Assembly (NCBI GenBank): GCA_020061685.1
Contig: JAGUXU010000124.1
Coordinates: 1 to 35,330 of the forward strand
Direction: 5' to 3'
DNA length: 35,330 nucleotides
Source of the DNA: Candidatus Omnitrophota bacterium
GTDB lineage: Bacteria; Omnitrophota; Gorgyraeia; Pluralincolimonadales; Pluralincolimonadaceae
In this document: piece after piece, positions 1,556-21,140 of the stretch
How positions within the stretch are numbered: position 1 is the first letter of the stretch
Layout of the letters: every line of letters begins with the position of its first letter
The notes under the pieces: generated by a model
What the model saw: only the letters and a program-made list of their open reading frames with translations
What the model was told of the DNA's origin: nothing
The model's database searches: none
Program-made: the position numbers and the translations under genes

Positions 1556-1678
1556 CCTTTTGTATTTAGACCTCGGCCTACGGCCTCGGTCTGAATTCGC
1601 TCAATCCGTGTTTGCTATCTAGATCTCGGCATATAGCCTCGATCTAAATTCGCTCATCTTAAAACACCAGCGAATTTA
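1556..1678 (-). repeat. Structured tRNA-trailer repeat: module A+B followed by a partial A and a second B hairpin
   Basis: Read on the minus strand directly after the CCA of tRNA-Leu. It runs AAATTCGCT-GGTGTTTTAAGAT-GAGCGAATTT (hairpin A, + coordinates 1646-1677), then AGATCGAGGC-TATAT-GCCGAGATCT (hairpin B, 1621-1645), then a half-A remnant (1593-1615), then AGACCGAGGCC-GTA-GGCCGAGGTCT (hairpin B', 1568-1592). The same module occurs at 4705-4761, 13990-14047 and 14180-14236. Confidence 0.7.
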
Positions 1679-1765
1679 TGGTGCCGAGAGGGGGAGTTGA
1701 ACCCCCAAGAGCTTACGCTCACAACGCCCTGAACGTTGCGTGTTTGCCAATTTCACCATCTCGGC
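1679..1765 (-). tRNA. tRNA-Leu (anticodon CAG), long variable arm, CCA encoded
   Basis: The reverse complement reads GCCGAGATGGTGAAATTGGCAAACACGCAACGTTCAGGGCGTTGTGAGCGTAAGCTCTTGGGGGTTCAACTCCCCCTCTCGGCACCA. The 7-bp acceptor stem is GCCGAGA/TCTCGGC. The anticodon arm is CAACG-TTCAGGG-CGTTG with U33 and G37. The T-arm is GGGGG-TTCAACT-CCCCC. Confidence 0.9.
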
Positions 1766-3901: not shown

Positions 3902-4354
3902 ATGGCAGAGGAAACAGTAGCCACAAATAAGGAAGCTTGGCATAATTACCATATTCTCGAGTCGGTAGAGGCCGGAATCGAGCTGGAAGGGGCCGAGGTA
4001 AAGTCCTTAAGGGACCACAAGGCGAATTTAAAAGACAGCTTTGCCAGAATAGAAGGAAATGAGATTTACCTGTACAATATGCACATCTCGCCGTATCCCC
4101 AGGCGGGGAGGTTTAACCCCGACCCGAAGAGGCGGCGTAAACTTTTATTACATAAGGCGGAGATAAAAAGACTGTTCGGGCAATTGACTCAAAAGGGCCT
4201 GACGCTGATACCGCTGAAGGTTTATTTCAAGAGGGGGTTAGCGAAGGTAGAAATTGCCCTGGCGAAGGGCAAGAGGCTCTATGACAAACGCGAAGATATA
4301 AAGCGCCGCGACAGCGACAGGGAATTACGGCGCGAACTTCGTAATAAAGAATAG
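3902..4354 (+). CDS. smpB: SsrA-binding protein SmpB
   Basis: The 150-aa ORF shows N(K/R)xAxHxYxI, GIEL.G.EVKS.R, and a basic C-terminal tail ([17 protein letters not shown]). It lies immediately upstream of the tmRNA gene. Confidence 0.95.
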
Positions 4355-4703
4355 GGGGCGAAAGGCTTCGACTTAAGAAGCTGGGTAAGAGTTGCATGCC
4401 GAGGGTGTCAGGCGGCCTCGTTAAAACCTGGCGACAAAGTTAAACGCGAATGAACTCGCGCTAGCTGCTTAATTAAGCAGCACGTCCTCCGGTCTTGCCT
4501 GTGAGGCCGGATGTGACGCCGCAACAGGCTGGTCCTGCTGTTTCGCCTTTAAGCGGCGGGATGAGATCATTTAAAGGCTAGTCCTTGCGGAAGCGGACCT
4601 GCTTACGCGGCCTCAAGGGCGAATGACAAATTGCAGGAAAAGCATGTAGTAGCTCTTATCGGGTGACTTAAGGACCGGGGTTCGAATCCCCGCGCCTCCA
4701 CCA
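4354..4703 (+). ncRNA. ssrA: tmRNA (SsrA), predicted tag ending ...ANELALAA
   Basis: The 5' GGGGGCG pairs with the 3' CGCCTCC-A-CCA, giving the G3:U alanine identity pair. The tRNA-like T-arm is GGGGTTCGAATCCCC. An internal ORF runs GCG ACA AAG TTA AAC GCG AAT GAA CTC GCG CTA GCT GCT TAA (4431-4472), preceded by an in-frame TAA. The resume codon is uncertain; the LALAA end is clear. Confidence 0.9.
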
Positions 4704-4704
4704 T

Positions 4705-4761
4705 GAATTCGCTGGTGTTTTAAGATAAGCGAATTCAAATCGAGGCCGAAGGCCGAGATTT
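4705..4761 (+). repeat. Structured trailer repeat (hairpin A + hairpin B) directly 3' of tmRNA
   Basis: Hairpin A is GAATTCGCT-GGTGTTTTAAGAT-AAGCGAATTC (4705-4736). Hairpin B is AAATCGAGGCC-GAA-GGCCGAGATTT (4737-4761) with the tandem G.A/A.G internal mismatch. It starts 2 nt after the CCA end. Confidence 0.7.
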
Positions 4762-4779
4762 CTGACAGGGGAGAGGGAT

Positions 4780-5886
4780 ATCAAGAGGATACCGTTAATA
4801 TTACTTGCCGCGGCCTTGCTGTTTACGGCGGGATGCGCGACCGTTCCGCGCAAGGGAGCCGGCAGAGAGGCGCTGTCTTCCCAGACGGTAAAGATAGTCG
4901 GTAAAGATTATCTGCCCGTGACCGTCGTGGCGATGTACTATCAGATGAAGTGGGATTGGGACCCTATCGCCAGGAGGGTGGAACTCATCAAGGGCGGCGA
5001 TCTTCTCGCCTTTTACGTGGGAATGGAATACGCGGTAGTAAACCGAAGGCCGGAAAAGCTCAGCTCTCCCGTGGTATTTTATGAAGGGGCCGTAGCGATA
5101 CCCGCCGATTTCGCGATAGATAGGATAACCAAGATCCTGGGCCCGCCTCAGGCAACGGCAAGACATCCGTCGCAGCTTATGCAAAAATACGCCTTCAGGA
5201 AAGTGGTCATCGACGCGGGGCACGGCGGGATGGACCCTGGAGCGATAGGCAAAAGCGGCCTAAAGGAAAAAGACGTCACTTTGGATATCGCGCGCCGCCT
5301 GAAAGAAGAATTGAGGGATAGCGGCATAGACGTGGTCCTGACCAGAGACAGGGATAAGTTCGTATCTTTAAGCGGAAGGACGCAGATAGCCAACGATAAC
5401 GACGTGGATTTTTTCATAAGCATCCACGCGAACGCCAACAGGTCGAGGAGCGTAAGGGGATTTGAGGTCTATTATTTATCCAACGCGGTAGACGATACGG
5501 CCCGCGCCGCGGAAGCGGCGGAGAACTCATTCCTGAAAATAGATGATTCGTCTTTCTATGTCCGCAGCACAGACCTTGAAGCGACGGTCTGGGACCTCGT
5601 TTATACGGAGAACCGCGAGGAATCCATCGAACTCGGAAAATATATAAGCAGGTCCGTAGATAGCGGGACTTCGTTAAATTGCCGCGGCATAAAAGGCGCG
5701 AGGTTCTATGTATTAAAGGGCGTGCAGATGCCGGCGGTATTGATAGAGGTAGGATATATCTCCAATCCCACGGAGGAACAGTGCTTCAAATCCGCCTCCT
5801 ACAGGCAGGCGGTGGCGTCCGCGATAGCAAAAGGGATACTGAATTATAAAAAAGTATATGAATCTACAGACGGATTTACCAGATGA
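4780..5886 (+). CDS. N-acetylmuramoyl-L-alanine amidase (Amidase_3, AmiC-like), probable lipoprotein
   Basis: The catalytic domain shows VVIDAGHGGMDPGA, ISIHANA and GARFYVLKG..MPAVLIEVGYISN. The track ORF starts at TTG 4816 (MLFTAGC...). The frame is open from 4729 and encodes (I)KRIPLILLAAALLFTAGC, a lipoprotein-type signal, from ATC 4780 just downstream of GGGGAGAGGG. The 5' end is therefore uncertain (4780 or 4816). Confidence 0.85.
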   Translation: MKRIPLILLAAALLFTAGCATVPRKGAGREALSSQTVKIVGKDYLPVTVVAMYYQMKWDWDPIARRVELIKGGDLLAFYVGMEYAVVNRRPEKLSSPVVFYEGAVAIPADFAIDRITKILGPPQATARHPSQLMQKYAFRKVVIDAGHGGMDPGAIGKSGLKEKDVTLDIARRLKEELRDSGIDVVLTRDRDKFVSLSGRTQIANDNDVDFFISIHANANRSRSVRGFEVYYLSNAVDDTARAAEAAENSFLKIDDSSFYVRSTDLEATVWDLVYTENREESIELGKYISRSVDSGTSLNCRGIKGARFYVLKGVQMPAVLIEVGYISNPTEEQCFKSASYRQAVASAIAKGILNYKKVYESTDGFTR

Positions 5887-6683
5887 GGAATAGTCCGATA
5901 GGCGTCTTTGATTCCGGTGTGGGCGGGCTGACGGTCGTAAAGGAACTTACCAGGGAGATGCCCAATGAGGATATAGTCTATTTCGGGGATACCGCGCGTG
6001 TCCCTTACGGGACCAAGTCCGCCTCGACGATACAGAAGTTCTCCATTCAGAATGTATTGTTCCTCCTTAAGCGTAATGTAAAATTGATAATCATCGCCTG
6101 CAATACCTCTTCGGCTATCGGCTTGCCGTTCCTGTCGAAGTATTTCAGCATACCGATAATCGGCGTTATAAAACCGGGCGCAAAGGCGGCTGTCCGGTCG
6201 ACGAGGAACGGCAGGATAGGCGTCATAGGGACAAGCGCCACCGTCTTAAGCGGCGCTTATGATAAAGAGATAAAGGCGCTTAATTCCGGTATAAAAGTTT
6301 ACAGCGGCAGTTGCCCTTTGTTCGTTCCTCTGGCCGAGGAGGGATGGGCGAATGACGGCATCGTCGACGTCGTCGCCAGAAAATATCTGGCGGCGTTTAA
6401 AGGCAGGAACATAGATACCCTGATCATGGGTTGTACGCATTATCCGCTCTTGAGGTCCTCCATCAGGCGCGTGATGGGGAAAGGCGTAAAACTTATCGAT
6501 TCCGCGGAGGAGACCGCCAAAGAAGCAAGGGGCCTTCTGGAAGAATGCGGACTGAAGTCGGCGGCGCGAAGGAAGAACAGGTCAAAATTTTACGTAAGCG
6601 ACGCACCGGACAAATTCAGGGCTGTCGCGAGGCGGTTTTTGGGCAGGGACGCGCAGGCGGTGGAGAGGGTCGACGATGTTTGA
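5883..6683 (+). CDS. murI: glutamate racemase
   Basis: The ORF shows IGVFDSGVGGLTV, IIACNTSS and GCTHYPLL, which include the two catalytic Cys boxes of MurI. It has a 4-nt ATGA overlap with the amidase gene. Confidence 0.92.
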   Translation: MRNSPIGVFDSGVGGLTVVKELTREMPNEDIVYFGDTARVPYGTKSASTIQKFSIQNVLFLLKRNVKLIIIACNTSSAIGLPFLSKYFSIPIIGVIKPGAKAAVRSTRNGRIGVIGTSATVLSGAYDKEIKALNSGIKVYSGSCPLFVPLAEEGWANDGIVDVVARKYLAAFKGRNIDTLIMGCTHYPLLRSSIRRVMGKGVKLIDSAEETAKEARGLLEECGLKSAARRKNRSKFYVSDAPDKFRAVARRFLGRDAQAVERVDDV

Positions 6684-11134: not shown

Positions 11135-13766
11135 GCCGGTTCAGTAATTTATTGCGCAGGATGCCTTCAAGCGAGAAAGTCGTTATCTGGTATTTCGGAT
11201 CCTTCGTAGTGCCCGTCAGCTTTATCTTTCCTACGAAATTTCCCATCTCGTCCACGAAGAAATCCCGTAGCGGCCCTATCGGTGTCGGCCCCTGCAGGAA
11301 CTCTTTAGCGAAGGCCGCGGTTATGTCAAAATCAAGGTTTCCGTCGAAGTCAACGCTTCCCTCACCGATAAGGCTTATCTGCGGCGAGTAAAGCTCCGTA
11401 TTTCCGGTGACTATAACCCTGTTTCCTATCGTAAAGGTCCCCTTGGCCTCCCCGAAGACTATCTTGCTTACACCCGGTATGTAAAGTATGTTCGCGAGCC
11501 CGGCAAAGACAGGCAGTTCCCAGAGTTTTCCGTTCGCTATAGCGAAGGCGCCCTTCCCTCTCAAAGTCTCTATGTTGTTCCCGAACCCGCCGAATTCGGC
11601 ATTCGCGTAAAAAAGCCCGCGCATGTCCGTGTTCTTGAATTCGGTATCATTCTTCCATTTGCCGATATCGATCTCCTTTAAGCTTACCTGGATGACATAT
11701 TGCGGGTTCTGTTGCGTAAAGTCGATGGCGACATTGGCGGTAAGATTTCCGCCGTAGGGTCTGGCGGTTATGTTCGGCATGGATACGAAATTATCCTTGA
11801 ATTTATATTCAAGATACAGATCGTCGAGTTTCAGTTTTTTTACTTCCAGCCGCGGCGACTCGGCCTTCAGTTCTATCTGCCAGGTCTTCTGGTCTTTCCA
11901 CTTCCCATTAAAGACAAATTTTGAAGACAGGGCGCCGCTTACCCCGAATTTATCGAGCGTTTCCGCGTTTTCTTTCGGCAGGTAATTTTTTAGTTCATTT
12001 ATATCGGCCGCTATGCTCCCGTGGAGATCCAGGAGGGGGTCCTTGAAGCCGGCGACAGAGCCGAAGAGGCCGAACTTTACTTTTTTATAGTTTCCCTCGA
12101 ATTTATTAAAGAGGAGAGAATCCTCCACGGGCTTAAAATTTGTCTTGAGGTTCAGGTCGTCCGAGGCGAGCGCCAGGTTAAAGACCGGCGCCTTGAGGTT
12201 CGTTATGTCGCCGTTAAGCGTGTATGTCTTGTCATCGAAGTTGCCGGAGAGGTTCTTTAGATTTACGGAATCCGCCTTATAAGTCAGGAGGCCGGTTACC
12301 GAAGTTATGGTCTTATCGAGGAAGTCCGGCTTAATAGCGCAGTTTAGCAGTTCAGCCGTCAAGACGGAAGAAAGCGGCGTCTTATCCTGCTCCTTGAGCG
12401 ATCCTTTTACGCTAAGAGCCACCTTGCTTTTCCCCGCCGTCTCGTAACCCTTTAATTTATCTTTCAATTCGGGCGGCAGGAATTCGTTAAGCCTGATGAG
12501 GTTTATCTCTGTCTTCGCGGTCAGGTCAAGATAGGGGTCGGCATAGTTTTTTACGCTTCCCGAGAAAATGAGGTCCAGTCCGCGCGCCGCCCCTTTCATA
12601 GAGTCGGCCCATAATTTATTCTCATCAAGAAATATTTTTCCGTTTATCTTCTCGACCGCGCCGAATTCCGGAACGCCTTTTAATACGGCGTCCCTTAAGA
12701 GGGCGTCAGCGCTATATTTTAGGGTCGTCTTGTCTTTGAGGTCAAAGGCGACTTTACCGTTCACGTCGACACCGCCCTTAAAGGAGAAATCTTTAGCGTT
12801 TAATTCTAGATTATCCATTTTCGCGGCAGCCGATATGGAACAGGGGATTTTTGTCTTGTCCTTTAATTCCATCACCATCCTGCCGCTCAAGTCGACGCCG
12901 CTTTTTATCGCGACCTCTTCGCCCATTATGTTTAAGCTGCCTATCGTCGAGAGGGCCTCGACCGTCAGCTTATTATCGGGGACATAGAGCAGGCTTACAT
13001 TGCCGCTCAGATTTCCCGATAAGGATTTAAACGGCAGGCCGGCATAATACGGCTGGAACTCGGCAAACGGGACGTTCTTGAGCCTCAGGTTAAGTATCGT
13101 CTCTTTCTTTACAGGGTCAAATTCCCCGTCGGCGGATATGGAATTTTTCTGGTTTATGCCCAATTCCGCGTTTAGCTTATATTTTATCTTAAGCAGGTAA
13201 GAGATCGTCGCCCGGAAGTCTATATTCTTCAGGTCCTTTGAGAAGGCCGGCTCAAGCGCGCGGTCCTCGAACGCGCAGGCCGCGTCAGAGACCGAGATGC
13301 CGGATACGATAACACTGTATCCCTGCGGTTTTGCCTGCGGCTGGTTCAGGAAGAGGAGGGATTCAAAATTCCATTTATTCTCGTTATCTACCGTAAGGAT
13401 CAATTTAGGCGACTCGACCTTTATAAGAGGGACTATTATCTTCTTTTCCTGAAAGAGGGGGATATAGAGGATATTGAAGTATAGCTTTTTTATCTCCAGG
13501 AATTTCCTGTTGTATTTCAGGTCATCGGAGAAGGTGAGGTTCCTAAGCGTTATCCCCCTGAAGGGGTTATAATAGATGCTCTCCAGGGTGACTTCGCGGC
13601 CCGTCGCCTTTGTAAGATATTCTATGGCGAAGGCCTTGCCTTTGACCGGCAGGATATATTCGTTGGCATACCAGATTCCTATCGAGGCAAATATGCCAAG
13701 AAGTATCAGGAAGAGGAGCACCTTCCTAAGAAATGGGATACCGCGGCGTTTCTGTTGTCCCTGCAT
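11100..13766 (-). CDS. AsmA-like / TamB-like large envelope protein with N-terminal membrane anchor
   Basis: This is a long, repetitive, beta-rich ORF with N-terminal MQGQQKRRGIPFLRKVLLFLILLGIFASIGIW (basic stretch plus TM helix). It has a DUF748/AsmA-like start (VTLESIYYNPFRGITLRNLTF). The track ORF begins at a TTG at 13853, but the internal ATG at 13766 immediately precedes the anchor, so I prefer it. Confidence 0.6.
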   Translation of the reverse strand: MQGQQKRRGIPFLRKVLLFLILLGIFASIGIWYANEYILPVKGKAFAIEYLTKATGREVTLESIYYNPFRGITLRNLTFSDDLKYNRKFLEIKKLYFNILYIPLFQEKKIIVPLIKVESPKLILTVDNENKWNFESLLFLNQPQAKPQGYSVIVSGISVSDAACAFEDRALEPAFSKDLKNIDFRATISYLLKIKYKLNAELGINQKNSISADGEFDPVKKETILNLRLKNVPFAEFQPYYAGLPFKSLSGNLSGNVSLLYVPDNKLTVEALSTIGSLNIMGEEVAIKSGVDLSGRMVMELKDKTKIPCSISAAAKMDNLELNAKDFSFKGGVDVNGKVAFDLKDKTTLKYSADALLRDAVLKGVPEFGAVEKINGKIFLDENKLWADSMKGAARGLDLIFSGSVKNYADPYLDLTAKTEINLIRLNEFLPPELKDKLKGYETAGKSKVALSVKGSLKEQDKTPLSSVLTAELLNCAIKPDFLDKTITSVTGLLTYKADSVNLKNLSGNFDDKTYTLNGDITNLKAPVFNLALASDDLNLKTNFKPVEDSLLFNKFEGNYKKVKFGLFGSVAGFKDPLLDLHGSIAADINELKNYLPKENAETLDKFGVSGALSSKFVFNGKWKDQKTWQIELKAESPRLEVKKLKLDDLYLEYKFKDNFVSMPNITARPYGGNLTANVAIDFTQQNPQYVIQVSLKEIDIGKWKNDTEFKNTDMRGLFYANAEFGGFGNNIETLRGKGAFAIANGKLWELPVFAGLANILYIPGVSKIVFGEAKGTFTIGNRVIVTGNTELYSPQISLIGEGSVDFDGNLDFDITAAFAKEFLQGPTPIGPLRDFFVDEMGNFVGKIKLTGTTKDPKYQITTFSLEGILRNKLLNRLREGLFGGSSE

Positions 13767-13814
13767 GGCTATTATTCTATTAGATTCGGAGGGCCTTTTC
13801 AATCCTAAAATGGT

Positions 13815-13843
13815 TTGACTTTTAAGGGCCGAATTGGTAAAAT
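13815..13843 (+). promoter_or_regulatory. near-consensus sigma70 promoter TTGACT-N17-TAAAAT
   Basis: The -35 is at 13815-13820 and the -10 at 13838-13843, with an exact 17-nt spacer. It points toward the tRNA cluster, in the divergent intergenic region upstream of the AsmA-like gene. Confidence 0.5.
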
Positions 13844-13862
13844 CTAACTGCAAAACTATGCC

Positions 13863-13889
13863 CGCTCTCGACGAATGAGAGCGTTTTTT
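13863..13889 (+). terminator. intrinsic-terminator-like hairpin CGCTCTC-GACGAAT-GAGAGCG + T6
   Basis: A perfect 7-bp GC-rich stem (13863-13869 / 13877-13883) is followed by TTTTTT (13884-13889). It sits about 13 nt after the predicted start site of the 13815 promoter and 21 nt before tRNA-Pro. Confidence 0.5.
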
Positions 13890-13910
13890 AGTCTATTTTT
13901 TGGTATAATA

Positions 13911-13988
13911 CGGGGCGTAGCGCAGTTTGGCTAGCGCGTCTGGTTTGGGACCAGAAGGTCCTCGGTTCAAGTCCGAGCGCCCCGACCA
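13911..13988 (+). tRNA. tRNA-Pro (anticodon TGG), CCA encoded
   Basis: The acceptor stem is CGGGGCG/CGCCCCG (C1-G72, typical of bacterial tRNA-Pro). The anticodon arm is TCTGG-TTTGGGA-CCAGA. The T-arm is CTCGG-TTCAAGT-CCGAG. Confidence 0.9.
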
Positions 13989-13989
13989 T

Positions 13990-14089
13990 GATTTCGCTCA
14001 ATTTTTCAAATTAGGCGAAATCAGACCGAGGCTGAATGCCGAGGTCTCTTATAGGCCGTAGGCCGAGATCTCTATATAGTCAATCGAGG
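13990..14089 (+). repeat. Structured trailer repeat (variant hairpin A + hairpin B + degenerate partial copies) 3' of tRNA-Pro
   Basis: Hairpin A is GATTTCGC-(17 nt)-GCGAAATC (13990-14022). Hairpin B is AGACCGAGGC-TGAAT-GCCGAGGTCT (14023-14047). A 3'-half copy AGGCCGTAGGCCGAGATCT follows at 14053-14071, and a 5'-arm fragment ATCGAGG at 14083-14089. Confidence 0.65.
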
Positions 14090-14101
14090 AGTAATTTGTA
14101 C

Positions 14102-14178
14102 GCGCCTGTAGCTCAGTTGGATAGAGCACCTGCCTTCTAAGCAGGGTGTCGGGCGTTCGAGTCGCCCCAGGCGCGCCA
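14102..14178 (+). tRNA. tRNA-Arg (anticodon TCT), CCA encoded
   Basis: The acceptor stem is GCGCCTG/CAGGCGC. The D-arm is GCTC-AGTTGGATA-GAGC. The anticodon arm is CCTGC-CTTCTAA-GCAGG. The T-arm is GGGCG-TTCGAGT-CGCCC. Confidence 0.9.
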
Positions 14179-14179
14179 T

Positions 14180-14236
14180 AAATCCGTTGGTGTTTTAAGA
14201 TAAGCGGATTTAGATCGAGGCTATATGCCGAGATCT
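14180..14236 (+). repeat. Structured trailer repeat (hairpin A + hairpin B) 3' of tRNA-Arg
   Basis: Hairpin A is AAATCCGTT-GGTGTTTTAAGAT-AAGCGGATTT (14180-14211). Hairpin B is AGATCGAGGC-TATAT-GCCGAGATCT (14212-14236), and B is identical to the copy at 1621-1645 (minus strand). Confidence 0.7.
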
Positions 14237-14258
14237 ATATAGCTAATACAAATTATAC

Positions 14259-14336
14259 GGTGGGTGTAGCTCAGCTGGTTAGAGCACTTGACTGTGGCTC
14301 AAGTGGTCGCGGGTTCGAATCCCGTCATCCACCCCA
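14259..14336 (+). tRNA. tRNA-His (anticodon GTG) with encoded G-1 and CCA
   Basis: An extra 5' G (14259) lies opposite discriminator C. The acceptor stem is GTGGGTG/CATCCAC. The anticodon arm is CTTGA-CTGTGGC-TCAAG. The T-arm is GCGGG-TTCGAAT-CCCGT. Confidence 0.9.
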
Positions 14337-14369
14337 ATTATTTCATTCTTCACGGATAACTTGAGAATT

Positions 14370-14407
14370 AAAAGGTTATGACCGGAATACCGGTCATAAC
14401 CTTTTTT
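14370..14407 (+). terminator. strong intrinsic terminator ending the tRNA cluster
   Basis: AAAAGGTTATGACCGG-AATA-CCGGTCATAACCTTTT forms a 16-bp stem including A/T ends, followed by a T-run (14402-14407). The A-tract upstream makes it potentially bidirectional. Confidence 0.8.
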
Positions 14408-14408
14408 C

Positions 14409-14437
14409 TTGACAAAGCCGAATCTAGCGTGTATTAT
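14409..14437 (+). promoter_or_regulatory. consensus-like sigma70 promoter TTGACA-N17-TATTAT
   Basis: The -35 is at 14409-14414 and the -10 at 14432-14437. It is followed by the SD AGAGAGGAAA and the ATG at 14469. Confidence 0.6.
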
Positions 14438-14468
14438 TAGCATATGCCAATAACTAAAGAGAGGAAAT

Positions 14469-14765
14469 ATGCCCAGGCCTTGCAGGTGTAGAAGAATAAG
14501 ATGCAGTCCCGACTCGAATTATTTTAAGCCGCGGGGCATTCCTATTGATGAGCTGGAAGAGATAAATCTTACGCTGGATGAGTTGGAGGCGGTAAGGCTT
14601 GCCGATTTAGAGGGCATGTATCAGGAAGATGCCGCAAAGAAGATGGGCATCTCGCGCCAGACCTTCGGGAATATTGTTAATTCCGCGCATAAAAAGATCG
14701 CGGACGCGCTTTTGAACGGCAGGGCGCTCAAGATCGAAGGCGGCGCGGTAAAGAAGGTTGGTTAA
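14469..14765 (+). CDS. DUF134 (UPF0251) family putative DNA-binding protein
   Basis: MPRPCRCRRI...P....FKPRGIP......I.L.LDELEA.RLADLEG..QE.AA..MGISRQTF..I...A.KKIADAL..G.AL.IEGG matches the DUF134 signature, which has a sigma-70 region 4-like HTH. Confidence 0.85.
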   Translation: MPRPCRCRRIRCSPDSNYFKPRGIPIDELEEINLTLDELEAVRLADLEGMYQEDAAKKMGISRQTFGNIVNSAHKKIADALLNGRALKIEGGAVKKVG

Positions 14766-15724: not shown

Positions 15725-15755
15725 AGAGGAAACGCCTCTCCAATCCTCAAAAACC

Positions 15756-15784
15756 TTGATATAGTAAGATATTACCCCTATAAT
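15756..15784 (+). promoter_or_regulatory. sigma70 promoter TTGATA-N17-TATAAT (copy 1 of a duplicated ~45-nt promoter cassette)
   Basis: The -35 is at 15756-15761 and the -10 at 15779-15784. The block 15742-15785 is near-identical to 21086-21130, including the spacer and upstream A-tract. Confidence 0.6.
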
Positions 15785-15872
15785 AAAACCAGTGAAATTA
15801 GAGAGGTTTCCCCTCATGTAATACGAGAGGGACCCCAGATTATTTTGCCTTTTTGAAAGGGAAAGAAAGAAG

Positions 15873-21044: not shown

Positions 21045-21100
21045 GCAGGACAAATCGGACAAAATCCGCAAAGAAATCCCTCTTTAATCCCCAAAAATCC

Positions 21101-21129
21101 TTGATGTAGTAAGATATCGCCCGTATAAT
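21101..21129 (+). promoter_or_regulatory. sigma70 promoter TTGATG-N17-TATAAT (copy 2 of duplicated cassette)
   Basis: The -35 is at 21101-21106 and the -10 at 21124-21129. The 8-nt inverted repeat CCTTGATG (21099-21106) / CATCAAGG (21131-21138) brackets the core promoter. The SD AAGGAG at 21135-21140 precedes the ATG at 21141. Confidence 0.6.
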
Positions 21130-21140
21130 ACATCAAGGAG

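Follow-up and report, generated by a model that had tools for sequence, protein, structure and literature searches.

Why does the same pair of hairpins stand directly behind the encoded CCA ends of a transfer-messenger RNA (tmRNA) gene and several transfer RNA (tRNA) genes in one bacterial contig? The question is raised by contig JAGUXU010000124.1 (35,330 nucleotides [nt]; assembly GCA_020061685.1), which is analyzed here in its entirety as the window and is assigned to Candidatus Omnitrophota by its SmpB and DUF134 homologues. The original prediction, made for positions 13989-14236, described a module of two hairpins, A and B, which begins right after the CCA, varies by compensatory changes and functions as RNA in the 3' trailer. 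In the best reading of our results, the A+B module occupies, in one clade of Omnitrophota, the short transcribed spacer that lies right behind the CCA encoded by tRNA, tmRNA and tRNA-like genes. Both stems are maintained by compensatory change and the GA/AG core of hairpin B is invariant, albeit the module is dispensable, having been gained or lost between close relatives.

Modules behind the stable-RNA genes of the window

Both ARAGORN and Rfam were used to locate the stable-RNA genes of the window, of which there are five:

1679-1765, minus strand: tRNA-Leu(cag)
4354-4703, plus strand: tmRNA
13911-13988, plus strand: tRNA-Pro
14102-14178, plus strand: tRNA-Arg(tct)
14260-14336, plus strand: tRNA-His

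Four of the five (tRNA-Leu, tmRNA, tRNA-Pro and tRNA-Arg) are followed by an A+B module on the same strand as the gene, and the predicted start right after the CCA was confirmed at all four, lying one base past the CCA. The sole stable-RNA gene in the window that lacks the module is tRNA-His, which has a classical terminator instead, as had been foreseen. The modules (with their scores against the covariance model described below), their parts and this terminator are as follows:

1621-1678, minus strand: A+B module of tRNA-Leu, 84.1 bits
1646..1678, minus strand: hairpin A of tRNA-Leu(cag), T followed by stem AAATTCGC, loop TGGTGTTTTAAGATGA and GCGAATTT
1621..1645, minus strand: hairpin B copy 1 of tRNA-Leu, AGATC-GA-GGC-TATAT-GCC-GA-GATCT
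1568-1620, minus strand: second unit of tRNA-Leu after the first module, 5'-truncated (half of A and a full B)
1593..1620, minus strand: tail AGATAGCAAACA and one half of A (remainder of the loop, then 3' arm GAGCGAATTC) with which the truncated second unit starts; repeat D9
1568..1592, minus strand: hairpin B copy 2 of tRNA-Leu, AGACC...CGTAG...GGTCT
4704-4761, plus strand: A+B module of tmRNA, 79.2 bits
4704..4736, plus strand: hairpin A of tmRNA, from the fold and the covariance model
4737..4761, plus strand: hairpin B of tmRNA, AAATC-GA-GGC-CGAAG-GCC-GA-GATTT
13989-14047, plus strand: A+B module of tRNA-Pro, 82.2 bits
13989..14022, plus strand: hairpin A of tRNA-Pro, stem GATTTCGC/GCGAAATC, loop TCAATTTTTCAAATTAG
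14023..14047, plus strand: hairpin B of tRNA-Pro, AGACC...TGAAT...GGTCT
14048..14072, plus strand: 5'-truncated B copy after the tRNA-Pro module (GGCCGTAGGCCGAGATCT), no full hairpin; repeat D8
14179-14236, plus strand: A+B module of tRNA-Arg(tct), 82.3 bits
14179..14211, plus strand: hairpin A of tRNA-Arg(tct), stem AAATCCGT/GCGGATTT, one U.G pair included
14212..14236, plus strand: hairpin B of tRNA-Arg(tct), identical to 1621-1645 on the minus strand
14374..14407, plus strand: intrinsic terminator after tRNA-His, 12-bp stem, AATA loop and T-run

Six full copies of B with the GA/AG mismatch had been counted in the window. The mismatch is indeed present in every full copy, but only five copies are full. 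The sixth (14048-14072) is truncated, with a degenerate 5' arm, no 5' GA and just a 4-bp tip; tRNA-Arg begins 30 nt downstream of it, and the same truncated form is also present in L038 and L036 (loci outside the window are cited by such numbers). The truncated second unit of tRNA-Leu gave a match of 37.8 bits to the covariance model (1562-1608, minus strand), and the start codon of an open reading frame (ORF) with a YbaK-like editing domain lies 21 nt downstream of B copy 2. tRNA-His begins 23 nt downstream of the hairpin B of tRNA-Arg.

The ribosome-binding site of an amidase lipoprotein gene lies approximately 10 nt or less past the tmRNA hairpin B. At the place where L022 has an ATG, this gene (4768-4830) has none (GGGGAGATGGAAATC for L022 versus GGGGAGAGGGATATC for the window); its start may be a non-canonical codon or else the TTG at 4816.

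Structure and covariation of the two hairpins

The module is approximately 58 nt long and comprises a T after the CCA, hairpin A and, without any spacer, hairpin B. Hairpin A has a stem of 8-9 bp (GAATTCGC/GCGAATTC and variants) and an AU-rich loop of 15-18 nt. The loop GGTGTTTTAAGAT is exactly identical at three of the four window loci, as originally noticed; across module variants the loop sequence varies, and A and B are unrelated in sequence. Hairpin B, 25 nt in length, reads AGAYC-GA-GGC-N5-GCC-GA-GRTCT with an unvarying GA/AG step, which makes a symmetric 2x2 internal loop free of bulges. The AGAY consensus proposed for B is correct as the general form but does not cover the tmRNA copy (AAATC...GATTT), which adds a further compensatory pair (G-C to A-T). 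The compensatory variants of the A stem and the T-A/C-G covariation in B are as described.

Chance does not account for these hairpins, as the B pattern matched five times in the window against 0.00 expected, and a generic scan for any tandem-GA hairpin in the C-GA-G context found only the same five copies in the window, with 0.13 expected from shuffles. The modules had fold z-scores of -4.2 to -6.1, and their sense folds were more stable than the antisense folds (-22.3 versus -15.0 and -23.4 versus -19.5 kcal/mol). In a structure alignment of 12 module sequences, 99.5% of the alignment cells were paired and compensatory double changes occurred at 7 of the 16 stem pairs. The observed pairing and covariation were reached by none of 500 shuffles, and sliding the partners by 1-3 columns abolished the covariation signal, so that the covariation originally claimed is supported. 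The three inner G-C pairs and the GA/AG step never varied in this alignment. A closer relative, L065 (SmpB 93% identical), differs at its tmRNA locus in the sequence of both stems (A stem AATTTTGC/GCAAAATT; B UUGUCCC...GGGGCAA), and the C-GA-G step is retained there and present twice, one nested in the other.

The G.A reading exists on the sense strand only, and all of the wobbles are sense-strand G.U (alignment columns 9-28, L065 and L012) with no A.C pair, implying that selection acted on the fold in a single-stranded nucleic acid of the sense strand. The data do not discriminate between RNA, the favored form, and single-stranded DNA of the same sense. That the G.A pairs are sheared was an assumption of the original prediction. 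In DNA, the 5'-Py-GA-Pu-3' context gives sheared G.A pairs, and in RNA the 5'-C-GA-G-3' context reportedly gives imino-paired G.A, a finding credited to SantaLucia and Turner in 1993.

Distribution in Omnitrophota

Module-bearing loci were obtained in two ways, namely by scanning collections with a pattern that required hairpin B only (one genome for each of 185,579 species in GTDB, JGI metagenomes and IMG/VR) and by fetching syntenic loci via SmpB. Most of the matches in the B-only scans were chance ones inside high-GC coding DNA. The low-GC, non-coding matches fell into four groups: six A+B modules in five Omnitrophota loci (L022, L028, L033, L038 and L046), an element of Treponema and other spirochaetes, one ribosomal RNA (rRNA) leader of Saccharibacteria and a palindrome in L036. 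In GTDB genomes and JGI metagenomes, the scans found neither a low-GC, non-coding match in a protein-gene context nor an Omnitrophota-type copy away from a CCA end. The strict B pattern was found in a single Omnitrophota genome among the 185,579 species genomes and had no match in IMG/VR.

The loci syntenic by SmpB added modules in L060, L062/63 and L065. Altogether, there are 12 distinct modules, all abutting a CCA on the sense strand, and their hosts are tRNA-Leu(cag), Pro(tgg), Arg(tct), Arg(acg), Ala(cgc) and Ser(tga), tmRNA, and duplicated 3' fragments of tRNA-Ala and tmRNA. From the 12 modules we built a covariance model, which was run over both strands of 298,752 bases of Omnitrophota DNA. 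All of the 13 matches above 70 bits started at CCA+1 on the sense strand, those of 38 bits were truncated second units, and nothing comparable to a full module, and hence no full-scoring copy away from a CCA, was found elsewhere in these approximately 299 kilobases (kb). Neighborhoods of relatives fetched via DUF134 turned out not to be syntenic; these approximately 100 kb of Omnitrophota DNA are module-free and serve as a negative control only. The proposed restriction to the sense strand holds for the 12 distinct modules but not for one divergent unit, which is antisense at the 5' end of a tRNA-Ser gene in L028, so the sense orientation is a strong bias and not a rule.

Rfam searches at the gathering and E-value levels took in the window together with the loci of Omnitrophota and Treponema. 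Neither A nor B nor the X and Treponema elements described below are covered by any family, and the gathering threshold (Rfam 15) was passed by tRNA and tmRNA only. The sub-threshold matches that overlap modules comprise a weak spurious sX4, an antisense ALIL and the intervening loop of a permuted-tmRNA match, and no others. Searches of the literature on tRNA-trailer hairpin repeats, tRNA-linked MITEs (miniature transposable elements with inverted repeats) and Omnitrophota repeats yielded no description either, in agreement with the claim that this is not a described family. The repeat is best read as a genus-level family limited to one small clade of Candidatus Omnitrophota.

Gain, loss and exchange between relatives

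In L053-L059 (SmpB 77-89% identical), the syntenic tRNA-Leu, tmRNA and tRNA-Pro sites have no module, and 18-33 nt separate CCA-T or CCA-A from the start codon of the next ORF. L053 and L060 are approximately 93% identical in DNA and 100% identical in tRNA-Leu, and yet A+B is present in L060 and absent from L053. Neither a terminal inverted repeat nor a target-site duplication was found at this filled/empty junction, where the remaining spacer has itself diverged. One and the same variant, truncated B' included, was found behind tRNA-Pro in the window and behind tRNA-Arg(acg) in L038. Between the window and L022, the tmRNA modules have A in common but differ in their B variants and tails, and the L022 tmRNA module resembles the tRNA-Leu copy of the window.

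The absence from syntenic relatives implies that the module is not a required, conserved processing signal, and shuffled variants together with truncated tandem units are the behavior of an insertion-type repeat. The pattern speaks for gain, loss and exchange between loci and against a required signal. Thus, of the proposed RNA function in tRNA/tmRNA trailers, what stands is a real, strand-specific structured unit tied to stable-RNA 3' ends, while the idea of a general or required trailer signal does not.

Other insertions were seen in relatives. L053, where A+B is missing, carries another insert behind its tmRNA (6049-6200), approximately 150 nt long and rich in hairpins; a portion of it (GCTTCGCGGAAATAAAGGTGTGGACTCAAAC) shows homology to the left part of the insert in L062. 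L054 (20268-20369) and L055 (20268-20297), contigs encoding the same SmpB protein, differ by an indel of approximately 72 nt in the tRNA-Pro/tRNA-Arg spacer, which contains the hairpin ATTTTTGCGC-AAA-GCGCAAAAAT. In L056 (10454-12471 and onward), the 3' end of the tmRNA is overlapped by the gene of a large serine recombinase, and a T-loop-like inverted repeat (AATTCGAACC...GGTTCGAATT) lies just past the CCA; the island continues past the recombinase with a helix-turn-helix protein, a PLD-SNF2 helicase and an MmeI-type methylase. A similar recombinase in L058 (5165-7188) is inserted in a comM-like Mg-chelatase gene. The serine recombinases of L056 and L058 belong to separate islands.

Related elements and B-type hairpins elsewhere

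Three places carry a conserved, ORF-less element of approximately 110 nt, termed X:

L033:2525-2661
L062:1379-1568 (the same as in L063)
L028:2362-2500, minus strand

X opens with the host T-arm copied in inverted form (GGAGTCGAAC where the host is tRNA-Ala, GGATTCGAAC where it is tmRNA); next comes an acceptor 5' strand, which base-pairs to the 3' strand of the host with G3.U70 retained, then two covarying hairpins and finally GCGAC. In L033 and L062, X is followed by a 22-nt duplicate of the host tRNA/tmRNA 3' end (T-loop to CCA) and then by A+B, while in L028 a complete tRNA-Arg takes the place of the duplicate after GCGAC. The Rfam model of permuted tmRNA aligned the T-arm-CCA-spacer-GGGG arrangement of X, and a weak match to Clostridiales-2 remained below threshold (31 bits versus 58.6). 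X is absent from the window, and its hairpin pattern had no match in IMG/VR. Its sequence looks like that of a tRNA-like mini-element integrated at the T-loop.

Identical B hairpins recur outside Omnitrophota in the following places:

L012:142-502, Treponema/Spirochaete element
L014:3307-3445, minus strand, Treponema/Spirochaete element
L017:307-445, Treponema/Spirochaete element
L021:209-343, minus strand, Treponema/Spirochaete element
L026:300-627, minus strand, Treponema/Spirochaete element
L043:677-891, minus strand, Treponema/Spirochaete element
L052, around 11037, Treponema/Spirochaete element
L004:600-682, sense strand, 16S leader in a metagenome-assembled genome (MAG) of Saccharibacteria (16S rRNA from 859), A-like long hairpin and then an exact B (AGACCGAGGC-TTTTA-GCCGAGGTCT)
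L036:61-277, palindrome with an exact B at the tip and arms of approximately 57 bp, then a repeat of the 5'-truncated B form (GGCCGAAGGCCGAGGTCT) and the right arm

The Treponema/Spirochaete elements are 135-215 nt long and occur behind tRNA-Leu(cag) or tRNA-Met, singly or as up to three copies in tandem. Their architecture is X-like: a', an acceptor-like strand, a core, a duplicated tRNA 3' end and the same terminator as that of the tRNA, with segments a and a' matching the host tRNA (inverted T-arm copy). The core contains the identical B hairpin and a second tandem-GA hairpin, CC-GA-GC-GAAU-GC-GA-GG, and compensatory changes were found at 11 of 42 predicted pairs. No integrase was found near these elements, and no Rfam family matches them. 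The A-like hairpin and B of L004 lie downstream of promoter-like sites. L036 is a metagenome contig of 1.2 kb that is otherwise unrelated, has no detected stable-RNA gene and is rich in CACGTCA-type simple repeats.

The mini-hairpin CC-GA-GC-GAAT-GC-GA-GG also recurs in IMG/VR contigs (L075-L102, e.g., L081/L094, L088/L099, L079/L084, L078/L101, L089, L077 and L091). In 11 of 21 distinct contexts the stem is extended with differing flanks, where approximately one would be expected by chance, and neither a GAAA-loop control nor a perfect Watson-Crick control showed such an excess in IMG/VR. It sits in both terminal inverted repeats of contigs of approximately 16 kb, with a covarying twin (GA-AC-GAAC-GT-GA) adjoining, in tandem repeats of a giant-virus MAG, and before T-runs in phage contigs of 33% GC (terminator-like sites). 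This recurrence in excess over the controls implies that tandem-GA hairpins are a recurrent motif with no assigned partner.

A proposed role in the transcript

At every module, a co-oriented start codon or tRNA lies 18-35 nt past B, and the spacer between tRNA and ORF in module-less relatives is only 18-33 nt. As such a spacer leaves no room for a promoter, the tRNA/tmRNA and the next gene should be co-transcribed, and a terminator function of the module is ruled out; the sole tRNA with a terminator, tRNA-His at the end of the operon, is the one without a module. We tentatively favor, with somewhat less than even confidence, an insertion-like, lineage-restricted structured repeat in tRNA/tmRNA trailers that acts as hairpins in the transcript. 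The module is probably a spacer hairpin cassette, which would be transcribed within a tRNA-mRNA or tRNA-tRNA precursor and work as RNA. Hairpin A, one base past the CCA, would expose its AU-rich loop of 15-18 nt as a plausible entry site for an endonuclease, and after release of the tRNA, the downstream RNA would start with A+B as its structured 5' end. RNase E and RNase J sense 5'-monophosphates, and 5'-terminal stem-loops are known stabilizers, since a hairpin near the 5' end protects RNA. Likewise, A+B may block 5'-end-dependent decay of the downstream RNA and may also halt 3'-to-5' exonucleases arriving from downstream. The tandem G.A step would confer hairpin stability on the sense transcript only while keeping the DNA an imperfect palindrome, and may be a handle for a protein. 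Spread or homogenization between tRNA trailers probably proceeds via recombination, gene conversion or an unknown site-specific insertion process.

Several points weigh against this proposal. Co-transcription and processing are deduced from geometry alone, and a stabilizer of downstream mRNA brings no obvious benefit in tRNA-tRNA spacers. The exact 20-nt B stem shared with the Treponema elements, the Saccharibacteria leader and the L036 palindrome is explained by a protein or DNA recognition site with horizontal carriage no less well than by a passive RNA clamp. Several B loops are C-GNA-G, and the G.A step stands in a Py-GA-Pu context; both are unusually stable in single-stranded DNA. A role in RNA trailers leaves unexplained the divergent A-like+B-like unit of L028 (1104-1223, plus strand), the sole antisense case, which lies exactly at the 5' end of tRNA-Ser(gct) and reads on the strand opposite to the flanking genes, with an A-like GTTTGC...GCAAAC followed by two B-like tandem-GA hairpins (GGATCTC-GA-GCCCC... 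and GGACCCC-GA-GGG-TATAT-CCC-GA-GGGGTCT).

If the transcript role is true, the module would be a natural, modular insulator that separates a tRNA from the following cistron and comes and goes over short periods, and the filled and empty sites in 93% identical genomes amount to a clean natural experiment on how tRNA-mRNA co-transcripts are separated or stabilized, in a phylum without a cultured model.

Alternative explanations

The alternative that survives best, possible but on balance doubtful, places the function in DNA: A and B would form single-strand or cruciform hairpins as the handle of a mobile element, or as an attachment region for a recombinase or transposase acting on tRNA/tmRNA 3' ends, and the module would be a non-autonomous repeat like REPs or PATEs (see below), its transcription being incidental. 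The differing presence between near-identical relatives, the truncated tandem units and the variants shuffled between tRNA genes fit this explanation, as do the C-GNA-G loops and the Py-GA-Pu context, which favor DNA hairpins. The module stands next to the duplicated 22-nt tRNA/tmRNA ends of the ORF-less, T-loop-inserted elements in L033 and L062; the identical B in the tandem Treponema arrays lies 6 nt from the duplicated tRNA 3' end; and B or its tandem-GA relatives occupy the tip of the long-armed palindrome in L036 and the terminal inverted repeats of the viral contigs of approximately 16 kb. The antisense unit stands exactly at a tRNA 5' boundary, at which the opposite strand resembles an acceptor 3' strand. 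On the other hand, no integrase or transposase adjoins any module or Treponema array in the fetched loci, the module borders show neither terminal inverted repeats nor target-site duplication, and the strict B pattern is missing from IMG/VR. A and B are unlike each other, whereas the left-end and right-end hairpins of IS200/IS605 are alike, and a short target such as NCCA cannot account for sites restricted to tRNA genes. The window copies at 1.6 kb (minus strand) and 4.7 kb (plus strand) are opposite in orientation approximately 3 kb apart, each with its gene, while GC skew keeps a single sign across the whole window; the orientation is thus set by the gene and not by the replication strand, which rules out an IS200/IS605-like insertion into the lagging-strand template. 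Moreover, the orthologous tmRNA site in L065 keeps the structure while the sequence drifts, which looks like long-term purifying selection in place. Should the module act as DNA, there would be an unknown mechanism that locates the exact 3' boundary of tRNA genes.

A wider version of the same idea, which we consider unlikely, regards the B-type tandem-GA hairpin as the handle of undescribed multi-phylum machinery acting on the T-loop-to-CCA end of tRNA/tmRNA genes. The A+B module, the X elements and the Treponema arrays would then be parts of one structure-guided, tRNA-end-specific mobile system, in which element sequences matching the tRNA select the target. Whether RNA or DNA is the active form, a tandem-GA hairpin common to the Treponema tRNA-like elements, an rRNA leader of the candidate phyla radiation and viral terminal repeats is a recurrent motif without an assigned partner.

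Somewhat less likely still, A+B could be a passive remnant, the arm beside the attachment core of tRNA-integrating mini-elements (X family) or islands, copied by integration, excision or gene conversion and without any function. The repeated unit in L033 is indeed [tRNA 3' end + A + B + spacer + X], the Treponema arrays likewise duplicate the terminator past the duplicated tRNA end, and the tRNA/tmRNA ends of the clade are busy insertion sites (the L053 insert, the L056 serine-recombinase island and the 72-nt L054/L055 indel). However, X is absent from the window, L022, L060 and L065, all of which carry modules, and no second copy of a tRNA end was found downstream of the modules at the window's four loci. 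A neutral remnant would decay, while the seven compensatory pairs, the invariant GA/AG step and the architecture kept in the diverged L065 demonstrate selection on the fold.

We regard as improbable that tRNA/tmRNA precursors need the module as a conserved signal for 3' processing or protein binding. The strict distance from the CCA on the sense strand, the covariation and the invariant G.A step would suit such a signal, and B in a 16S leader and in structured tRNA-like elements is always sense to the stable RNA; yet the module is absent from the syntenic tRNA-Leu, tmRNA and tRNA-Pro of relatives and from tRNA-His of the same operon, the strict pattern is confined to one Omnitrophota genome in the species collection, and a processing signal would not be expected to occur in tandem or truncated copies.

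An intrinsic terminator or an internal promoter for the downstream gene is scarcely credible: hairpins do stand at the gene end and the AU-rich A loop has TAAGAT, which is -10-box-like, but no T-run follows A or B (the real terminator comes after tRNA-His), co-oriented genes start 18-35 nt on, the spacing in module-less relatives is too tight for their counterparts to have a separate promoter, and a scan of 13700-14500 found no sigma-70 promoter inside the modules, the A loop being unconserved between variants.

Other features of the window

Just upstream of tRNA-Pro, 13815-13889 contains a near-consensus promoter (TTGACT-17-TAAAAT with an upstream TG), followed approximately 20 nt on by a terminator-like hairpin and T-run (13863-13889), and a second TATAAT ends 2 nt before the 5' end of tRNA-Pro. 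This arrangement could produce a very short transcript or leader. Besides, a 44-nt direct repeat (15749-15792 and 21094-21137, 82% identical) is promoter-like (CTTGAT-N18-TATAAT) and heads two different gene groups.

Comparison with known systems

Repetitive extragenic palindromes and the mosaic elements built from them (REP/BIME) resemble the module in being short imperfect palindromes with conserved mismatches, strand-specific, arranged in tandem or truncated arrays and variable between strains; they are also transcribed in 3' flanks, where REPs are known as RNA stabilizers. The 25-nt hairpin B is an imperfect palindrome within their range (20-40 nt with conserved mismatches). REPs, however, occur at hundreds of intergenic sites, whereas the module was found only at the CCA ends of stable-RNA genes, with copies only at tRNA/tmRNA ends across the 35-kb window and approximately 264 kb of related loci. 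The module further differs in having two different hairpins instead of one, and no gene for RAYT, the Y1 transposase that mobilizes REPs, was seen in the fetched loci. REPs are marked by a conserved GTAG-type tetranucleotide 5' of the palindrome. The TAG-type motif of the module lies 3' of B and is inconsistent (ATAG or GTAG, 3-9 nt 3' of B in approximately 9 of 13 copies), and the sequence 5' of B, where A abuts, shows no conserved motif.

MITE-like repeats (Correia/NEMIS, RPE, ERIC and BOX) are likewise small, ORF-less, structured and polymorphic in presence, and may sit in transcripts; RPE can insert into the tmRNA gene of Rickettsia. The module differs from them by the absence of terminal inverted repeats and target-site duplication and by one insertion point and one orientation, both fixed with respect to the host gene. 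The palindrome-associated transposable elements (PATEs) derived from IS200/IS605 share subterminal imperfect hairpins read on one strand and oriented insertion beside a fixed short sequence, but the hairpins of the module are unlike each other, its orientation follows the gene, and a 4-nt target cannot account for sites in tRNA genes only.

Functional tRNA 3' trailers such as the 3'ETS of glyW-cysT-leuZ in Escherichia coli lie, like the module, in a transcribed trailer or spacer of a tRNA operon, and 5'-terminal stabilizer hairpins of the ompA type begin, as A would after processing, 1-2 nt from the new 5' end, a geometry known to guard against 5'-end-dependent decay. Both are single-locus features and form no repeat family. 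Kink-turns and other tandem-GA motifs (L7Ae-family sites) share the symmetric 5'-GA-3'/3'-AG-5' step in a helix; a kink-turn was ruled out, as B has no 3-nt bulge and no C-stem/NC-stem asymmetry.

Attachment-site duplications at tRNA/tmRNA genes have the same genomic address as the module, which in L033 and L062 follows the duplicated 22-nt 3' end in the manner of an attR flank. The window modules, in contrast, have no duplicated tRNA end or island, and synteny with module-less relatives is intact; an attachment site of an integrated element was rejected for the window loci, as a direct repeat of the tRNA 3' end was found only for X in L033 and L062. Islands integrating into tRNA/tmRNA genes include the ssrA islands of Dehalococcoides (PMC3146451).

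The observation itself is solid. Closest to the module in kind are REP/BIME and the MITE-like structured repeats, with which it shares small size, imperfect palindromes, strain variability and residence in transcripts, while it shows neither the dispersion of the former nor the terminal inverted repeats and target-site duplication of the latter. The module is a structured intergenic repeat, undescribed in Rfam and in the literature searched, whose location is unusually strict, at the base that follows the CCA in stable-RNA genes.

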